40,346 nucleotides of DNA from a virus. This document shows positions 10,275-33,475 of the stretch, piece after piece (position 1 is the first letter of the stretch; every line of letters starts with the position of its first letter). The notes beneath the pieces were generated by a model. It was not told the origin of the DNA and searched no databases. It was given only the letters and a program-made list of their open reading frames with translations. The stretch lies in UHGV virus genome UHGV-0260710; one strand, written 5' to 3'. A program made the translations under genes and the position numbers.

Positions 10275-10570
10275 CGTTCGAACTCCACCCGGAAGTTACC
10301 AAAGCTCGGCTGGTCAGAGTAGTTGCTCAAGTCTTCTTTCAGACCGTCGACAATGCCTTTCTTAAAGACAAGTTCGACTACAGCTTCCAGACCTTCCGTC
10401 ACACCGACCTCTACCATCTTACGCTCAAAACCAGTGGTCTTCTCTCCGTTGAGGACCTTACGGCTCAGCTCGCAGAGAGTCTTCTTGAAGTTCTCCACGT
10501 TTTCAGTTGACAACACAGCACCCAGCGAGAACGAAACTCGCATACGTTTGGTCATAGCCATTAGTGACAC
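10271..10570 (-). CDS. gp5.5: gp5.5-like protein (true start may be the internal MAMTKR Met)
   Basis: 99 aa; N-terminal MAMTKR.RVSF resembles T7 gp5.5. Confidence 0.75.
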   Translation of the reverse strand: MSLMAMTKRMRVSFSLGAVLSTENVENFKKTLCELSRKVLNGEKTTGFERKMVEVGVTEGLEAVVELVFKKGIVDGLKEDLSNYSDQPSFGNFRVEFER

Positions 10571-10842
10571 TCCTTCTTGACAAGTTTGCGCTCGCGGTTC
10601 GTCTTAATAACGTGCTCACGCTTAGGAATACATTGCAGATGCTCAACGTTACAGCACCCACGATTCAAGCACAAATGGTCTATCTCGTAGCCATCTGGTA
10701 TCGGTCCGCACTTCTGCTCCCAGACCCATCGGTGGAACATGAACGCGAACTTAGTTCCCTTTCGGTAGCTTCCCATAGAGTACCGGAAGTACACGTCATG
10801 GTTCCTCTTATGAGAGACGCAGACAATACATCCGGTAGGCAT
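10561..10842 (-). CDS. HNH endonuclease (gene 5.3 position); start taken at MPTGCIVC
   Basis: Cys-rich HNH motif (GCIVC..H....EIDHLCLNRGCCNVEHL); ATG at 10840-10842 lies 31 nt after DNA polymerase stop. Confidence 0.75.
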   Translation of the reverse strand: MPTGCIVCVSHKRNHDVYFRYSMGSYRKGTKFAFMFHRWVWEQKCGPIPDGYEIDHLCLNRGCCNVEHLQCIPKREHVIKTNRERKLVKKECH

Positions 10843-10873
10843 GGTGTGAAACCTCAAGGTCTTAGTGCGTGGG

Positions 10874-13045
10874 TCAATGGCACTCTTTCCATGTTGGTCC
10901 AATCTTACCCTCCGTATCAAGCTCACACTTGAAGTTATAGAATAGTCCAACCTCTCTCATGGCTTCCTGTGCGATTCGAACTACATCCTCGGCAATTTCC
11001 TGAGTACGACACGCGATTTGTAATTCGTCGTGAATCCAAGCCATTAACGCAAAGTCTCCATCCCAGCCGTTGCCATAACCAGCCTCCTCAAGTTTCTTCT
11101 CAGTCAGCACCATCCAGTGCTTACAGACTACCGCACCATCACCTTGAAGTAATGCGTTCAGTGCTGAGTGTGGAGACCGGATGTGGATACGGCGACCATC
11201 AAGTCCACGCAGCCAACGGCGTTTCCACTTGACGATGTTCTCTCCGTCTACCCACTTAGAGTCTGAGATTAACGTATTACTCACAGCTTCCCTGAGGTCC
11301 TTGATGGCTGGTGTACCCTCAATGAATTTCTTCATGAGAGCTGAACCTTCCTTCTTACCACCTCCGACTATCAGTCCAATCTTAGCAGCACCTGCACCAT
11401 ACAGGAACGCATAGATGAACGTCTTAGCGTTGTTACGGAAAGCATCATGTTCATGGCTCGACTTGTCGCGTGGGACGTTAGGTGCTAATCCAGCGTTGAC
11501 TGCGTTTGCCCAGTGGATGTCACCTTCGACCACAGTCTTGGCGTATTCACCACCATCAAACGGAGCAGCTCGGTTCCCCAGACAACGAAGCTCAAGACCT
11601 GAAGCATCCACACCTACTTGAATCCAAGGGTCTGGCTTACCATCCTTCTTGTTCCACGCTGCACCGAAAGCACCACGGCAAGTCTCACCATACGGAGCAC
11701 CATTAGCCGGGACCTGAGCCATGTTTGGTGAGCTATGGGTCGCACGTCCTGTTACTGCACCACATGGGTTGATTGAACCGTGCATACGTCCGTCTGGACC
11801 TACAAGTTTCAACCATGCGTTCTTACCTTCAGCCGCCTGACCGATGCGCTTCTGGACCACCAGATACTCACGGACCAGCTCTACGCAAGCCTGAGCCTCT
11901 GCGTCTGGTAATTTAACGTGTTCTAACGTCTCGTCATCGACTACAGGTTTCCCGGTGTCAGTGAAGTCCACAGGATCCCAGCCACGCTCCATCAGGACTT
12001 TCGCTAAGTGGTCTCCGCTTCCCGGATTAAACTCAACGTAAGTGATTGGAGTGAATGGCGCTCCTTCCATCGTGTCTCGTGAGTCGAACTCGCAAGGCTC
12101 CAGACCTAAGCGTTGAGCTTTGTTCTTCGGCTTCTTGAATACTGACCCGACCTTAGGATACACGACTCGTGGATACTTCGGAAGGTCCTTACCTGTCCGT
12201 GGGTGCTTGAAGAACTCCTTGCCACCCTTCGGTGAATACCAGCTACCGAAAGTCGAACGCAGCTTGTCCAGCAACTCTGCACGTTTGACGGTGAGTTCAC
12301 GATATAAGCCTTCGACCATCTCGGTATTCATCGGATAGCCGTTACGTTCCATCTTCGCACAGGTCCACGCAGCATCATGTTCCAGACGCAACGCATAAAT
12401 CTGTTCGAAAGCGAACTGTTCAGACTGGAAGTAATACTTGTCAGTCAGGAACTTCTTGAACAATGACAGTGTGACCACAACGTCCTGAACGTTATAGTCC
12501 AGCATCTCCTGAGACGGGAACAACCATTCGTCCCCCGCCTTATATTCGATACCTTCGGCCTTGCACTTGGCAACGTAATCGTGTTTGTACTCACCCTTCA
12601 TCTCACCGAGACGATAGCCCCAAGCCTCAAGAGACTGGCGTCCCATCATCTTAGGTGGCAGACGACCAGCTTTCACCGCGCCCATGTCTGAGAACTTAAT
12701 GTTTGGATACATCAAGCGGCCCAGCACCAAGGTATCAATCATCTTGTGTTTCGGGAAGTTAAATCGTTTCCCAAAGTACAAACGCTTCAGCTTGTCTATA
12801 GCCGGGACGTCATAGTTGATACCGTTATGGAAGACCAGCATACCCGTAGGCGTTGCAGCAATTTCTTCCACCTTCTGTACATACTCTTTGAAGCCACCGA
12901 CGATACCGACCATCGGCGCTACCCCATACTTAAGGGTCTCATTCGACTCGGCATTAATCAGGACCCCACAATGGAACTGGGACACGGTGTCAAGGAGACC
13001 GTTGGTCTCGATGTCCGAACCCCAAATATCCTTAAGGTCAAACAT
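10874..13045 (-). CDS. gp5: DNA polymerase (gp5, family A)
   Basis: 723 aa; long collinear matches to T7 gp5 (FHNG..YDVPA, IDTLVL.RL, EAWGYRLGEMKGEYK, YNVQDVVVT, GSW..PKGG, RTGK.LPKYPR, GRATH, DASGLELRC, NAKTFIY.FLYGAG, KGLDGR..H.RSPH.ALN.LLQ, WIHDE.Q..CRT, LDTEGK.GP.W..CH). Confidence 0.95.
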   Translation of the reverse strand: MFDLKDIWGSDIETNGLLDTVSQFHCGVLINAESNETLKYGVAPMVGIVGGFKEYVQKVEEIAATPTGMLVFHNGINYDVPAIDKLKRLYFGKRFNFPKHKMIDTLVLGRLMYPNIKFSDMGAVKAGRLPPKMMGRQSLEAWGYRLGEMKGEYKHDYVAKCKAEGIEYKAGDEWLFPSQEMLDYNVQDVVVTLSLFKKFLTDKYYFQSEQFAFEQIYALRLEHDAAWTCAKMERNGYPMNTEMVEGLYRELTVKRAELLDKLRSTFGSWYSPKGGKEFFKHPRTGKDLPKYPRVVYPKVGSVFKKPKNKAQRLGLEPCEFDSRDTMEGAPFTPITYVEFNPGSGDHLAKVLMERGWDPVDFTDTGKPVVDDETLEHVKLPDAEAQACVELVREYLVVQKRIGQAAEGKNAWLKLVGPDGRMHGSINPCGAVTGRATHSSPNMAQVPANGAPYGETCRGAFGAAWNKKDGKPDPWIQVGVDASGLELRCLGNRAAPFDGGEYAKTVVEGDIHWANAVNAGLAPNVPRDKSSHEHDAFRNNAKTFIYAFLYGAGAAKIGLIVGGGKKEGSALMKKFIEGTPAIKDLREAVSNTLISDSKWVDGENIVKWKRRWLRGLDGRRIHIRSPHSALNALLQGDGAVVCKHWMVLTEKKLEEAGYGNGWDGDFALMAWIHDELQIACRTQEIAEDVVRIAQEAMREVGLFYNFKCELDTEGKIGPTWKECH

Positions 13046-13318: not shown

Positions 13319-15356
<2,038 letters not shown>

Positions 15357-18741: not shown

Positions 18742-19224
18742 TTATAATGAGTCTCTTAAGGCTACCGCCTCGGCTATGGTCTTGGCATATAGGACCACTC
18801 GCTCTCCGTTGACCACCTTCTTGATACAGTAAAGCTCTCGACCTTTCACCTTTGAGATGTGACGTTCTCCGGTAGTGTTGGTGGACATCTGGCCTTTGTT
18901 CTGGTTGTTCTCTGAGTGAGACACCAGTCGCAGGTTGGACATCCTGTTATTAGAAGGGTCCCGGTCAATGTGGTCAATCTCCATGCCGTCTGGTATGGGA
19001 CCATATGTCATCTCCCATATTACCCTATGAACCTGTAGATGCTTGCGGCCCCACGGTGTCCTGACGTTTATCGTCCAATAGCCGGACTTCTTCTTACTGC
19101 CTACCTTTCGTCCAGAGTGGAGGGCCAGCCCGGAGGCCGACCTTTCGTCCACTTTAAATCTTGACTGTAGGATTATCCTCAGTTCCACGCCACTGGTCGA
19201 ACGAGGGATGTCGCAATGAGCCAT
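18742..19224 (-). CDS. HNH homing-endonuclease-like protein (extra relative to T7)
   Basis: 160 aa; [41 protein letters not shown] core; 5' end overlaps the ligase 3' end (an in-frame GTG at 19150-19152 is an alternative start). Confidence 0.8.
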   Translation of the reverse strand: MAHCDIPRSTSGVELRIILQSRFKVDERSASGLALHSGRKVGSKKKSGYWTINVRTPWGRKHLQVHRVIWEMTYGPIPDGMEIDHIDRDPSNNRMSNLRLVSHSENNQNKGQMSTNTTGERHISKVKGRELYCIKKVVNGERVVLYAKTIAEAVALRDSL

Positions 19225-25039: not shown

Positions 25040-25197
25040 TGTTGGTTATCCTCAGCGTGCAAGCTGTCGTGTATGCGCTTGCGGCCCTCGTAGACCGCCT
25101 TCAGGTGACGTATAGCCGCATCGTGGTTTAACTGCCCGGTCTTGACCATAATCCGGGCGTTGGTGACGTGGTGCTGGCATAGACCGTAAGTTACCAT
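25036..25197 (-). CDS. Small hypothetical early ORF (53 aa), translationally coupled to Ocr
   Basis: ATG shares the A of the Ocr TGA stop (TGATG); hand translation [53 protein letters not shown]. Confidence 0.35.
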   Translation of the reverse strand: MVTYGLCQHHVTNARIMVKTGQLNHDAAIRHLKAVYEGRKRIHDSLHAEDNQQ

Positions 25198-25709
25198 CAC
25201 TCGCAGTCATCCTCAGCAGACGCAGGGTCGAACACTACGTTATCGTTGATGTCCTCGACCTTCAGGTGGCGACCTATCGCATAGTGATCTTTGGCACATG
25301 CAGTAGCGACATCAAGTGATACAGCTTGCTCAACGAATAGGCCTGTTTTAGCGTCTACTACCCAGTATTCTCCCTCCTCGTAGCAGCGCTCTTCAGGCTC
25401 GAACCAGACCACATCAGAGCTATTAGACACATCGTTATACAGTGCCTCATAAATGCGAGCTTGTAGGATGCGCGTTACGTCCTTGGTATCAGGCATCAGC
25501 CCAGAGTCTTCGAACTCATGGTCAATACCATCAGCAGCCATCACCGTGAAAATCTCGTGGTAATAGTGCGGAACCATATTGTCTACGACTTCATGTAGCG
25601 CATCGTAATAATCATCGCCTTCAGCTATTTCGTCGTACTGAATGCGCTCGTTAAATGCTTCAACGGTTGCAGCCAGCAGCTCATAGTATGCGTTAGCGTT
25701 ACGTTCCAT
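25197..25709 (-). CDS. ocr: Ocr-like anti-restriction protein (gene 0.3) with C-terminal extension
   Basis: 170 aa; core [36 protein letters not shown] matches T7 Ocr (117 aa); about 55 extra C-terminal residues. Confidence 0.85.
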
Positions 25710-26480: not shown

Positions 26481-27117
26481 AGGGCCTTTGGTCTGGACTG
26501 AAAGAGGGCCTATGGGGAGACTTGAGGTTCTTGAACTGTGAGATGTGGTCTCAAACTTTTGGTCCAAAACTCATCGAAGACTGTAGGACACAGCCACTGT
26601 AGGTCAAGGACCGTAGGTCAGGCGACACTAGGATAGACCAATAAGTAGGATGACCCTAAGTGAGCTTCTCTTAAGGTGTTACCTAAAGTCCTTGACTACA
26701 GTAGCTAAGGTCAGTAGAGTAGCGTCAGCTATGAACTGACCTTAGGTCTTCCGCTCATGAATCGTTACCATGATTGCATTAATTGCACTGAGAGACCAGA
26801 GAGCATACGAGAGTCTCGACCCACCCGACCCACTGACTTCCAGCAGTAACGCCAGAAGCAAGTAGAACAGCAGCAAGAAACCTGTATGTAGCTCGATTGG
26901 TCGCCAGAGCTTTAAGTACAGCTTTGGTCTTTGCCATATGCTACATACCTCCTGTATCTATGGTCGGTGACTATCTGTATTGGAGGGATTATGATTAATA
27001 TCACCCTCCTTCCATCGGTGCAAGCCTTAGGTAAGAACTCGGAGTCTGCCTCCTAAGGTCTTGCATAAAGTCTGCATATGTATATTCACTACAGTAATAC
27101 TATAAGTAACCGGGGGT

Positions 27118-27140
27118 CTTCCCTATAGTGATAGTTAAGT
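27118..27140 (-). promoter_or_regulatory. Phage RNAP promoter near the right genome end (phiOR-like), TTAACTATCACTATAGGGAAGACC
   Basis: Family motif downstream of the last gene, reading toward the genome end. Confidence 0.65.
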
Positions 27141-27263
27141 CCAAACTCCTTGTAAAACAGTAGGTTAGACTGGTAGTCACGCATGGTAACTACCTGAGTT
27201 TTTATTCACATATAGCGACATAGTATTCACCATGAAGCTCCCTTCCCTTGGTATTCCTCCAGT

Positions 27264-27612
27264 CTATTGCATCCTGTAAGCTATCGGTAGCATATCTATA
27301 GGTAACACCGTCCTTCGTCTGGCTAGTCTTCCACTTACCTGAACACCTCTTAATACTGTGGGCCAGCACCTCATGTCCTGACTCTTTCCTCTTCTTACAG
27401 CATTAACCGAGTTCTGAGACTTTGTGGCAAGCCGTAGGTTTTCTCTACGATTGTTCAACTTGTTCCTGTCAATATGGTCAACAACCATTCCATCAGGCAC
27501 TGGTCCGTAGAACATCTCGTACACTAAGATGTGCACAAAATGCTCATGGACCTTGTAGTATTTACCGACCAGACCCGACTATACAGCCGGGAACGCTATC
27601 GTCGTACTTCAT
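27264..27612 (-). pseudogene. HNH endonuclease paralog split by a frameshift (remnant or requires recoding)
   Basis: GTG-initiated 90-aa ORF (27264-27536) holds the HNH core HILVYEMFYGPVPDGMVVDHIDRNKLNNRRENLRLA; 15 codons in another frame upstream (MKYDDSVPGCIVGSGR, with TAGGAGGATAA-ATG RBS) plus the open HNH frame (..GKYYKV..) align to the N-termini of the intact paralogs (..[13 protein letters not shown]..); coordinates +/-1. Confidence 0.45.
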
Positions 27613-27623
27613 TTATCCTCCTA

Positions 27624-29390
27624 TTAGTGGAACGTAATGTATGACCCTAGTCCCAGCTCGTCGTCCGTATCGTGAGTTACCCGGACCCCATTGTCCCAGA
27701 ACTCAGTGTGGATGGACTCGAAGCCTTTCCGTGGGTTCTCCATCTGTTCCTCCAGCCACTCCTCAGTGACTTCACGTTCGCCCTTGTTGGCATCCTTAGC
27801 CATAGACTCAACGAAGAACTGTACACCGATAGCCAGCGCATCAAGTCGGTCATCGTGTGCCAAGGCGCCACGTTCACGAGAGATACGTGTCATCTGGTAG
27901 AAGAGAGAGTAGATAGGGTTACGAACACCATCCTTATCAGAGGCCGACTGGTAGTCTTGGACGATAGCAGCAGCGTTAACGATAAGTCGGTGAGACCCCA
28001 TGATAGGCTCCAGAACGTCACAGATGCGTAGTTCTTTCTGCCCCTTACTCTTCACTTCAGTTACAGCCGCAGGATGTATACGGGCCGCTACAGGCTTGAA
28101 TAGCTCAAGGTACATACCATCACCGAAGTTACCCTCAATGACGTATTCGTTGACCTTCCACTTACGACCAATCTTAGCCAGTGCTTCAAGCGTAGAGTCT
28201 TCATAACCACCACGCATGCCGCCAACTTCCATAGCGAAGATGTAGCCGTTGAGCTGGTACAGTACCGCATATCCAGTTTCATCCTTACCACGACCACTAG
28301 GGTCAATGACCAGAATCTTCTGGGTGTACGAACTGAAGGCAGAACCTACAGTCTGATACGTGTGGTATGAGTCTCCCATGAGTCCAACGTTAGGAACGTC
28401 CTCACGCTTGTTCTGAGGGTTTGGCAGCCATTGGTAGACCATTGGGCTGGACGCTGGGTCCAAGTCTGCTACGATAAGGTCACGGAGCTTCAGAGGGTAC
28501 TTCTCGGCATCACTCAGGTTCGGGTTAAGCATGAACTGTAGAGCGAAGCCAGCTTTACCGTAGGACAGCTCACGTTCCTTCAGGTCAGTATCGTCGAATC
28601 GAACTTCATCGGTCGGACGCCAGTAGTAGGCCTCAGGGTCCTCTTCAAGCTCTGCCTGAAGCATCGGTGCCAGACGGTAGCCGTAAGACTGCCAGTCCTT
28701 CTTATCACGTGGATAACGAGCAGGCCAGATAGTAGTGGTGTACCCACGGCCTTCCAGCTCACGATACAAGGTCATCTCGTTCTGAGGAGTACCCAGATAG
28801 ATGATTGTACCTCCCGGCTTCAGGATAGCGTCGAACTCTTTCACAAGCTCTGATAGACGGTCTCGTGCAGCCTGAGTCGCTGAGTTGTTCGGAACCTCCA
28901 CGTCATCGGCAATCAGGATGTCAGCACGACTACCAGTCAACTGACCAGTGATACCAACGGACTTAACCGAAGGTGAGTGGTCTGGCTTGGCGGGTCCAAC
29001 GTCAAAACTGATAACCGCATCTCGCTGTCCCTGCTTAGGTTTGAGTTCCTGAAGCTGAGGCATGAGGTCGATGATTCGCTTGATGAAGATGGAGTTAGCA
29101 TCGGCTCGTTCCTTTGATGCCGACACAATCATGAACTTCAAGTCTGGGTTGTTCCATAGCTTCCAGACCACAAAGCCACAGGTCAGAAACGACTTGCCAA
29201 TACCACGGAAAGCCTGAAGGATGAAGCGGCGATTATCCCCAGCAGCCAGCTTCTTACACATATCTATCTGGCAGCGGGTTGGAACCGGAAGGCTTAGCGC
29301 TTTCCAGAGAACGAAGATGAAGAACACGAAGTCGTCCTGCATCCTTTGGGTCATTTCTGCCTGTCTTTCAGCTGGTGTTTTCTTAGACAT
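27624..29390 (-). CDS. gp19: Terminase large subunit (gp19)
   Basis: 588 aa; near-collinear with T7 gp19 ([124 protein letters not shown]). Confidence 0.95.
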
Positions 29391-29823
29391 AGAGTCCCTC
29401 CAACATTAGGTCCCGGACAGCGATAGCCTCCTCTAAAGTGGGACGTGTTGTGCGCATACGGACTCCCTTACGCATAACCTCGATGGCGTAGCCGTTCTGG
29501 TGGAACGATACGTTCTTAACTCCAGTCTTTGAGTCAGAATGACCTGAGGTGTTGCAGGAGTTCGCGCTTGAAGTAACTAGCCGGAGGTTGTCCAGCCTGT
29601 TGTTAGTTCGGCAACGGTCGATGTGATCAATCTCCATGCCTTCTGGTATGGGACCGTTGGTTAGCTCCCAGATTACCCGATGAGCCAGCAGGAGTCCATG
29701 ACGTCTAGTTCCTACCTGATAATACCCGTGGTTTCCAACACACCCAACGTCCTTACCTGAACGAAGTGACTTCAGGCCAGACTTACTGGACTCATCATAA
29801 GTATACGAATCACTGAGCATCAT
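29383..29823 (-). CDS. HNH homing-endonuclease-like protein overlapping the terminase start
   Basis: 146 aa; [41 protein letters not shown]; 3' end overlaps TerL ATG by 8 nt; absent at this position in T7. Confidence 0.85.
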
Positions 29824-30973: not shown

Positions 30974-33475
30974 TTAAGAGTTTAAAATAGAAGAATATTT
31001 AGTAACAACATTACCAGATACAGGTGTCGAATCTATAGCAGGTCTTGCTGTTGCCCTGATATTTAGCCCAATAACCCCTGAATATGCTACTGACTGCGTT
31101 CCCGCATAACGGTAACATGCAAGAGTTCCTCCGGACTTATGAGTCCACTCAACGTTTCCATTTGCTTGAAACAGAAAGATATTAGCAGATGTTGTAGTTG
31201 TCATGTCTCCTGTGGAAACTACATTTACTGGCTCAGTGGTGGCAACTTTGATCAAGTGATACCCGGCAGGGCTTGTTACACCTCCACTCAACGTCAGATT
31301 TACATTCGTTTTACGCAATGCAATCAAACTACCATAAGCATTGCACACAATACCTCCTAAGCCACGAATTGTGGCGGATGGTAACTCTGTATCTTCCGTT
31401 AAATTTATACTTCCTGCGTTGGTATAAACGTCGTTTATTTCAAGCATTCTGCAAATTTTGGCAGCATGTTTCAAAGATTTTAGACCACGCGCTCCATTGA
31501 AACCCCAATTTTCATCGTTACCGTTAACTGGGTCGATGTATAACGTTGAAGGTGAAACGCCTGTAACTTCATTAACTAAATCCCATTTCCCAAGTTTTCC
31601 GTACTGGAACTGGCCATTGTTAGGATTTCGTATGTTGACTACAGCTCCAGAGTTTATGCCGTCAAGGAACCTGTAACCGTTGAACATCATGTAACCGTGA
31701 ATATCTACAACACTGCGACCCTTAACGCAGTTCTTGACGTAGACCACTGAACTGTTTGCTATACTTCCGTCTTGAATGAAAAGACCATTTAGACGGATGT
31801 CAGCGTCTGAGTTGATAATATAGAAACAATGTTTCGCCTTACCACCCGTGGCTTCCATGTGACAACCGTCAACCTTAAGCCCACCGTTACTGTTGGCATC
31901 CCCTTGGTTAACATACATGAATGAGCAGGTTTCTGTTACACAATACCTGAACTGCACAGAACTGCGTCCGTACTGTGTAATTGCGACATCGCCGGTTTCG
32001 TCAAAATCTTCCGGTTTAAAAATTACCTGTTCTGAATAAGTTGAATCCTGTCCAAGTCGAGCAATGTAAGCGTTTTTCACCTCAGAGCCGCCGTTTTGCT
32101 CGTAGAAAACAGCACCTTGAGTCTTGTATAGAATCTTAGGTGTTGTGTGAACACTGCCCCAAGCAATACTGTGAAGCATACCAACCTTTGGAATTCTGGC
32201 GGTTGATGCTGTGCTTCCTGGTGTGTTCTCACCAATGCTTAGATTGCTAGTTGTGCATCCTGCGGCACCTAACCAACGAAGCCCTAACAATGTTCCTGGC
32301 TTTGTGATAATAGACAGGTTTTCAATATCGATATGGCGAGCGCCTGTTCTTACTTCACCACTATCAATTTGTGAGCCTGTTGGCAAAAACATTGGGTCAG
32401 AGTTTAATGACCATGTTGACCCAGATTTAAGATAGACATACGTACTAACAGCAGCCATGTTACCTTCACCAGAAGGCGGGTTGAAGTAAAAACCTTGCTG
32501 TACGATTCGGCGGAAATAAGAGTAACCGGGCTGGACAATCTGCACGCCGGGCGGGATAAAGATTGTCTCTGTGTGCATGTACAGGCCGCGCAAAACAACA
32601 CGCTTTGCTACTACATCCAAGTGTGGGTTAAGTTCTGTTGCTGTGTCTGTAAATGAAATCGGCATGTCGTTGATGTATTTAAACATAGCCTTTAATGCCT
32701 GTGTATCGTCAGAAATCCCATCACCAATAGCTCCGAATTGCTCAGGGGTTACATCATTTAATACATCTGCTAATTTACCCGATGGATTAATTCCGATTAA
32801 TTCAGCCCCGTCATTATTCATTAGGCTTCCTCTAAGTGATGCATCACCAACACTAATCCACGCACCAAGACCAACACCACCAGCAGTTTCAGGAGTTGAA
32901 CCCTCTGGAACGTTCTTTGGAAGCGTACCATCCCAGCGGTAATACTCACCATCCTCTTCCCATAGCAGGACCTCGTTCCATGTTGTAACGTTGAAGCCTT
33001 TCTCGAAGGAGCGACGGGTAATATAGCCAACTAGACCAGCTGCCTTGATACGCTCAGCGATTCGGCGTGCTTCGTCCTCGCTATCCTTAGCGTTGCCAGC
33101 AGAGCTACCAGCAGCATCGGCATATTCCTTCGCTAAGTCAACAGTTTGGTCTCGACCTTCTTCTGCAATATGGATAGCCTGAAGCTCTGCATTGGTCAGG
33201 TCACTAGCTGTCAACACTGAACCATTCCTGAAGTCTACCACTAAGTCAGTTCCAGTCTGACGGTGAATACGAACGATGTCGAAACCTGATTGGTCAACCA
33301 ACATCTCAATAATCGTTGGATTAAGGAATCGGTAATCTCGACCGACTTCCAGTACACGGTTCAGGGTAGGGTTAGAGCTATTCACCAGCGTAACAACAAC
33401 AAACGTTCTGGCTAGGTAGTCGAACTCAATCCTGTACTGAGTGTTTCCTGAAGGGAATTGTGTAATCGTGGACAT
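30974..33475 (-). CDS. gp17: Tail fibre / tail spike (gp17): T7-like N-terminal adaptor plus C-terminal pectate-lyase-like (beta-helix) depolymerase-type domain
   Basis: 833 aa; first ~150 aa align to the T7 gp17 N-terminus (EFDYLAR.FVVVTL, DYRF, DGS.L.A.DL..A..Q..H.AEE.RD.T.D); rest unrelated to T7, contains [19 protein letters not shown], typical of pectate-lyase-3 tailspikes; 3' half visibly AT-rich. Confidence 0.85.

Follow-up and report, generated by a model that had tools for sequence, protein, structure and literature searches.

A gene in three pieces behind the terminase

The stretch of DNA analysed here (the window, 40,346 bases) comprises a whole phage genome in circularly permuted form. 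The phage is T7-like, of the Kayfunavirus type, and has all of its genes on the minus strand. The nearest deposited genomes are about 95% identical to it. Public contigs of 40,376, 40,401 and 40,487 bp carry exactly the same proteins as the window, and the differences in size seem to come from end overlaps that each assembler left on a single circle of 40,346 bp; the direct terminal repeat would accordingly be collapsed in the window. The terminase large-subunit gene (gene 19) occupies 29390..27624 on the minus strand and stops with TAA at 27626-27624. Immediately behind it the sequence reads AGGAGG (27622-27617, minus), a Shine-Dalgarno motif placed 4 nt 5' of an ATG. This motif has been kept from an intact gene: alignment shows it to be identical in Citrobacter phage CR44b and Salmonella phage KE14. 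In a small minority of phages of the Kayfunavirus type, an HNH cassette occupies the spacer between gene 19 and the phage promoter and gene 19.5 that follow.

What does this ATG open? The answer is the remnant of a single gene, 27612..27202 on the minus strand, which is divided into three frame segments over two reading frames. The first segment (27562..27612, minus) begins with the original ATG and runs for 16 codons, MKYDDSVPGCIVGSGR, to a premature TAA at 27564-27562. An earlier note on this DNA had correctly recognised the strong ribosome-binding site and the ATG right after the terminase stop, but counted 15 codons where translation gives 16. In alignment, the first 13 residues of this peptide are homologous to the N-terminus of CR44b 3.8B and KE14.

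The second segment (27363..27572, minus) encodes the HNH_3 catalytic core, LVGKYYKV...VVDHIDRNKLNNRRENLRLATKSQN...RCWP. It is shifted by +1 from the frame of the ATG, and translation of this +1 frame gives ...LVGKYYKVHEHFVHILVYEMFYGPVPDGMVVDHIDRNKLNNRRENLRLATKSQN.... A mechanical ORF call picks up part of it as a 90-aa ORF from a GTG (27536..27264, minus), also in the +1 frame, and this ORF matches the Pfam family HNH_3 (PF13392) with 78 bits and E=4e-22 against a cut-off of 24.8, much better than chance could give. The core was rightly placed in another frame than the ATG by the earlier note, which was also right that the GTG has no ribosome-binding site: no convincing Shine-Dalgarno sequence precedes it, and the segment as a whole is without a ribosome-binding site of its own. 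The GTG itself stems from a window-specific GCG to GTG change (Ala to Val, 27534-27536, minus), which makes it the apparent start of the 90-aa ORF.

The first two segments are separated by a deletion of 5 bp. Inside 27576-27569 (minus) the window has GGGTCTGG, compared with GGGTCTCGTCTGG in the intact orthologues; one GTCTC unit has been lost between GTCT direct repeats, which shifts the sequence 3' of the site to the +1 frame. The lesion is not a homopolymer indel. When the pieces are joined across it, they rebuild the N-terminus of the intact orthologues (...VPGCIVGSRLVGKYYKV...); the earlier note had aligned the spliced pieces to intact paralogs.

An interruption by frameshift had been noticed before, but as one lesion; a second deletion, of 1 bp, lies farther on in a run of C (27362-27360, minus), where the window has CCC and CR44b has CCCC. 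Past this point the reading frame of the core continues as a tail of nonsense residues, TVLRGVQVSGRLARRRTVLPIDMLPIAYRMQ (27264..27359, minus), which has no homology to the intact protein and ends at TAG. The homologous sequence is found in the third segment (27202..27360, minus), the AP2-like C-terminal part HSIKRCSGKWKTSQTKDGVTYRYATDSLQDAIDWRNTKGRELHGEYYVAICE, which reads HSIKRCSGKWK...GEYYVAICE and is followed by TAA. In a tblastn comparison these last 53 codons show 98% identity to residues 86-138 of CR44b 3.8B, in a frame that differs from that of the core. The remnant had been taken to end at 27264; with the C-terminal segment included, it reaches 27202, 62 bp farther.

Since 5+1=6 bases are missing, the third segment is back in the frame of the ATG. 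However, seven stop codons lie in that frame between the leader and the third segment, so this compensation rescues nothing, and no open frame joins the start, the catalytic core and the DNA-binding part. Both deletions carry the signature of slippage, a direct repeat in one case and a homopolymer in the other.

The genome has five HNH loci in total, and the one downstream of the terminase is the only broken one. The other four HNH_3 genes appear intact (29383-29823, 18742-19224, 14991-15356 and 10561-10950, all minus); their neighbours are, in that order, the terminase, ligase, primase and DNA polymerase genes, and each overlaps or abuts its neighbour. The product of the gene at 10561-10950 is Cys-rich and has a weak match to zf-His_Me_endon.

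Intact orthologues and the protein family

A megablast search with the locus finds five phage records that cover it fully, namely two records of CR44b and the Salmonella phages KE05, KE14 and KE18, and in all five an intact gene of 138 codons is annotated at the locus. The orthologue of the remnant in CR44b is gene 3.8B (YP_009007191.1), annotated as 'HNH endonuclease / predicted homing endonuclease'. Like the window copy, CR44b 3.8B and the genes of vB_STmST19_KE05, KE14 and KE18 directly follow the stop of gene 19 behind the same ribosome-binding site; they are 95.9-98.1% identical to it in nucleotide sequence over the aligned bases and have the HNH_3 core and the C-terminal tail in common with it. 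They differ in being uninterrupted ORFs of 138 codons, whereas the window copy is without the 5 and 1 bases described above.

Two further genes set the window apart from CR44b. The Ocr-like anti-restriction protein (25197-25709, minus) has 170 aa compared with 114 aa in CR44b; its residues 1-114 are 85% identical to the CR44b protein, and the remaining 56 form a C-terminal extension. The tail fibre (30974-33475, minus, 833 aa) resembles CR44b gp17 only in the N-terminal 210 or so residues, at 49% identity. The receptor-binding part is thus unrelated to that of CR44b, which implies a different host range from that of the phages with an intact HNH gene.

Altogether, seven intact orthologues were found, each of them a plain single ORF. 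They include three divergent metagenomic genes with 60-86% amino acid identity, which also lie directly after the terminase. All orthologous copies with a visible upstream gene (7/7) have this position; the most distant relative, P0022 (52%), is on a 1-kb contig without a terminase in view. Among the intact orthologues dN/dS is 0.03-0.11, a sign of purifying selection, which indicates that the intact gene encodes a selected protein.

The first 48 nt or so of the HNH gene (27565-27612) are almost invariant across orthologues, third codon positions included. This near-invariance (GGC TGT .. GTC GGG TCT CGT) holds even where protein identity is 52-60%, and similarity falls sharply after it. Such a pattern marks either a mosaic recombination boundary or a constraint at the nucleotide level.

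What kind of protein does the intact gene encode? Its HNH_3 domain lies at residues 27-71, and the conceptually repaired protein of the window matches HNH_3 with 80 bits. Among 47 homologues, no variation is seen at D47, H48 and N60 and next to none at N56, N69 and N72; these catalytic and metal-binding residues of the beta-beta-alpha-Me finger (D-H ... N ... N) are all present in the window sequence, VVDHIDRNKLNNRRENLRLATKSQNSVN. The closest solved relative of the intact orthologue is I-HmuI (PDB 1U3E), with E=3e-4 over residues 27-79. This HNH homing endonuclease of Bacillus phage SPO1 and the CR44b 3.8B family both belong to the HNH_3 / His-Me finger group. They differ in that I-HmuI is encoded by an intron and has 174 aa, while the members of the CR44b 3.8B family are free-standing and carry an AP2-like tail. 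The C-terminal domain of I-HmuI is a helix-turn-helix, unlike the tail here.

An AlphaFold2 model of the intact protein, built with 47 homologues, has a mean pLDDT of 80.6. In this model, residues 1-19 are disordered, residues 21-72 form the beta-beta-alpha core, and a linker leads to a three-stranded sheet and a long helix at 89-132 (strands 89-92, 95-102 and 105-111, helix 114-132), where pLDDT is about 95. The tail is probably AP2-like. Pfam AP2 (PF00847) occurs together with HNH_3 in 29 of the 47 aligned homologues, and the predicted fold of the tail, three strands followed by a helix, resembles that of the free-standing HNH-AP2 homing endonucleases (PF13392 + PF00847). By contrast, the tail of the CR44b 3.8B subfamily is below the Pfam AP2 threshold: neither the intact orthologue nor the 55-aa segment gives a match to Pfam AP2, even at E<=1. 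A Foldseek comparison of the model with the PDB returned nothing at E<=0.001, and the top match was a weak one (E=0.06) to the AP2 factor WRINKLED1. An intact protein of the CR44b 3.8B type is predicted to be an active homing enzyme.

How widespread is the gene? Of 217 matching phage records, just 5 have it. In every other record inspected only the flanks match, with a spacer of about 55 bp from the stop of gene 19 to the conserved promoter region, and by tblastn no further orthologue reached 95% identity in 50,697 phage records. A gene that turns up only here and there, always in one intergenic site, in close relatives that are otherwise colinear is typical of a free-standing homing endonuclease; this is the pattern found here, and the distribution is that of a mobile passenger. 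In Hafnia phage Ca, another Kayfunavirus, the population is polymorphic for an HNH homing-endonuclease gene that adjoins the terminase gene (PMC8861465), and this polymorphism of gain and loss indicates that such HNH genes are unstable passengers in Kayfunavirus. In that case the gene lies upstream of the terminase, at the 3.8A position, and is removed by a clean 397-bp deletion, whereas the gene described here has decayed by frameshift.

A second interrupted copy has been recovered. A phage contig from SRR23959456 (40,407 bp), which comes from a different project, has a terminase 96% identical to that of the window. Its HNH protein, P0020 (117 aa), is from the same gene at the same locus; one C is missing from the C run, as in the window, and the nonsense tail again ends in ...LPIAYRMQ. 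Unlike the window, it has kept the 5 bp at the first site, and its start codon therefore still leads into the nuclease core. Within the gene, this allele and the window have 10 further differences. This one-lesion allele suggests either stepwise decay, in which the tail was lost first and the core disconnected later, or a recurrent hot spot in the C4 run. Pairwise comparison of the window, SRR23959456 and CR44b gives only 6-10 substitutions, the shared states of which conflict, and these few substitutions therefore do not discriminate between descent and recurrence of the shared 1-bp deletion.

Readings of the interrupted locus

Taken together, the data make it highly probable that the locus is a recently inactivated pseudogene of a free-standing HNH homing endonuclease, orthologous to CR44b 3.8B. 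A decaying homing-endonuclease gene was one of three explanations offered in the earlier note, beside a sequencing indel and a recoding site, and it is the one that is supported, by intact orthologues at the same locus and by two independent disabling deletions.

Could the fragments still be functional? The core of 90 aa might be re-initiated at GTG 27536, or the AP2-like tail of 55 aa might be translated separately from GTG 27369. It is true that the window-specific GTG falls at the very start of the HNH_3 match and that the catalytic D-H...N...N residues are intact; the second GTG is preceded by AGGA (27379-27376) with a spacer of 6 nt. However, the first GTG has no Shine-Dalgarno sequence, and the protein started there would be without the N-terminal strands and would end in 32 nonsense residues where the DNA-binding domain should be. 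As for AGGA and the GTG behind it, the intact genes have the identical sequence in another frame; it thus did not evolve for translation of the tail. Neither ORF is called by gene callers and neither product is on record. Residual activity of either fragment is therefore highly improbable.

It is still less likely that the real phage has an intact gene for the 138-aa protein and that both indels are consensus errors. One of the lesions does affect a short run of C (CCCC to CCC), and a single read set could underlie all the contigs that match the window exactly. But the other lesion is a 5-bp deletion outside any homopolymer, and losses of this type are not usual errors of consensus sequencing. 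The ENA scaffold ERZ28616352 (40,401 bp) and the Logan assembly ERR2641493 (40,376 bp), which were built differently, are 100% identical to the window over 7.8 kb and 5.3 kb, respectively, and both have both deletions; gene callers call nothing in the HNH interval of either. When 49 CR44b proteins were compared with the window by tblastn, the 46 others with a clear counterpart were each found in a single frame (0/46 frameshifted) and gp3.8B alone was split between frames, so that two random errors would have had to fall in one dispensable gene of 417 bp, with a chance of (417/40346)^2, or about 1e-4. The presence of both lesions in two separately built assemblies and the absence of any other frameshifted gene speak against the sequencing indel that had been considered.

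How far are the two lesions replicated? Look-ups with the terminase and the Ocr-like protein return five contigs, possibly all from one sample, and as the contigs identical to the window may share one sample, the 5-bp deletion is without an independent replicate. An exact-junction search for the deleted or the intact 5-bp site returned only CR44b itself in IMG/VR and no match in metagenome_contigs and genome_contigs. The C-run frameshift, on the other hand, is reproduced in independent data, since the phage from SRR23959456 is also short of one C there while its gene is distinct at 10 other positions, and this too argues against an artefact.

Programmed recoding is extremely unlikely. It would need a +1 shift (or a hop from GGU to GGU) before the TAA at 27564-27562 and a -1 shift near 27362, which together would yield an active enzyme of about 136 aa; as the net loss is 6 nt, a protein made by both shifts would align with the intact one almost throughout. 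At the first junction there is a rare CGG codon followed by a stop, the sequence GGU C GGU would permit a 4-nt hop of the peptidyl-tRNA, and a very stable hairpin lies 16 nt downstream. Against this, a simple +1 slip would require re-pairing from CGG to GGU, which is impossible, and orthologues with nothing to shift have the hairpin just as well. Scans of both frames for an X XXY YYZ heptamer were empty, as were those for A/T runs of at least 5 and C/G runs of at least 4, and the RNA fold at the second site is without structure (z=+1.2). None of the seven intact orthologues departs from a single ORF, the lesions of the other interrupted copy are not the same set, and two events of low efficiency in series would give a negligible product. 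The recoding site envisaged in the earlier note is thus most unlikely: ribosomes would have to shift once by +1 and once by -1, slippery heptamers are absent, and the intact orthologues have no frameshift. A low level of the 4-nt GGU-C-GGU hop is conceivable, but even then translation would run into the nonsense tail.

Packaging of the T7 type relies on direct terminal repeats and is not known to require an HNH partner. An HNH protein of the HK97 gp74 type, associated with the terminase in packaging and damaged here, was rejected on distribution and is scarcely credible: although the gene immediately adjoins the terminase large-subunit gene, and the packaging idea has been raised for an HNH gene upstream of gene 19 in a related phage (PMC8861465), only 5 of 217 related phage records have it, the present phage was recovered as a complete genome in which no copy works, and HNH_3 with an AP2-like tail is the architecture of free-standing homing enzymes.

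Probable course of the inactivation, and an RNA hairpin

If the locus is a decayed homing-endonuclease gene, how was it lost? Inactivation was probably stepwise. The 1-bp loss in the C4 run would have disconnected the DNA-binding tail, and this deletion appears to have come first; the 5-bp loss between the GTCT repeats would then have cut the nuclease core off from the start codon and the ribosome-binding site. Ribosomes loading at the retained site would now make the 16-residue peptide and stop, and no full-length enzyme would be produced. Homing endonucleases pass through a cycle of invasion, fixation, decay and loss, in which the gene of the window would stand at the degeneration stage. The loss may be due to a relaxation of selection after the last empty sites open to the element had been invaded.

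The remnant and its terminase differ in their divergence from CR44b, with 1.9% substitutions in the remnant and 4.1% in the terminase. No long history of decay is visible in these figures, and the lower divergence of the remnant indicates that the inactivation is recent. Four substitutions are specific to the window, three of them non-synonymous and one synonymous, a ratio that fits relaxed constraint in a count that is too small to prove it.

The locus is better annotated as one pseudogene with two frameshifts (27612..27202, minus), and annotation as a 90-aa 'HNH endonuclease' or as hypothetical ORFs would be incorrect. The gene family is known, and decay is ordinary and expected for mobile genes of this kind. 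The locus nevertheless offers a clean, datable snapshot of homing-endonuclease degeneration in T7-like phages; together, the one-lesion, intact and empty alleles are a possible small natural series from which the speed of element decay might be estimated.

The 5' third of the HNH gene contains an RNA hairpin. The transcript of 27579-27492 (minus) folds into a very stable structure of -46.1 kcal/mol (z=-5.8), with an inner stem at 27510-27545. When 4,024 windows along the transcribed strand are ordered by GC-adjusted stability, it comes second; the other top-ranking windows are mostly intergenic or in the early region, where processing hairpins of the T7 type would be expected. An Rfam scan of 26700-27900 gave one sub-threshold chance match, to leuA-Halobacteria (19 bits vs 47.9).

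The hairpin also forms in intact orthologues (z -3.0 to -5.0) and is conserved down to 76% nucleotide identity; the two most distant orthologues are without it. In ERR11042057, paired substitutions that are non-synonymous (H to Q with M to L, Y to W with A to S) leave its pairing perfect. Across eight sequences, 84% of cells pair and four pairs change on both sides, compared with 1.6±0.9 in shuffles; this count was matched by 11 of 500 shuffles, which gives modest support for conservation of the hairpin.

The hairpin may be a processing element of the RNase III type, or a stabilising element, carried by the cassette, and it is not needed to explain the pseudogene. There is a slim chance, about as small as that of a sequencing artefact, that the locus is not dead weight, either because the AP2-like tail is translated separately and shields the phage or because the hairpin serves the terminase mRNA. 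In the first case, the 55-aa tail (GTG 27369) would bind the target of the enzyme and protect the phage from its intact relatives during co-infection. In the second, the hairpin at 27579-27492 would have been kept as an RNase III-type processing or 3'-stabilising element of the terminase mRNA, which would account for a cassette that was frameshifted instead of deleted. As for the changes specific to the window, the GCG to GTG substitution closes the only mismatch of the inner stem, and the 5-bp deletion lengthens the outer stem.
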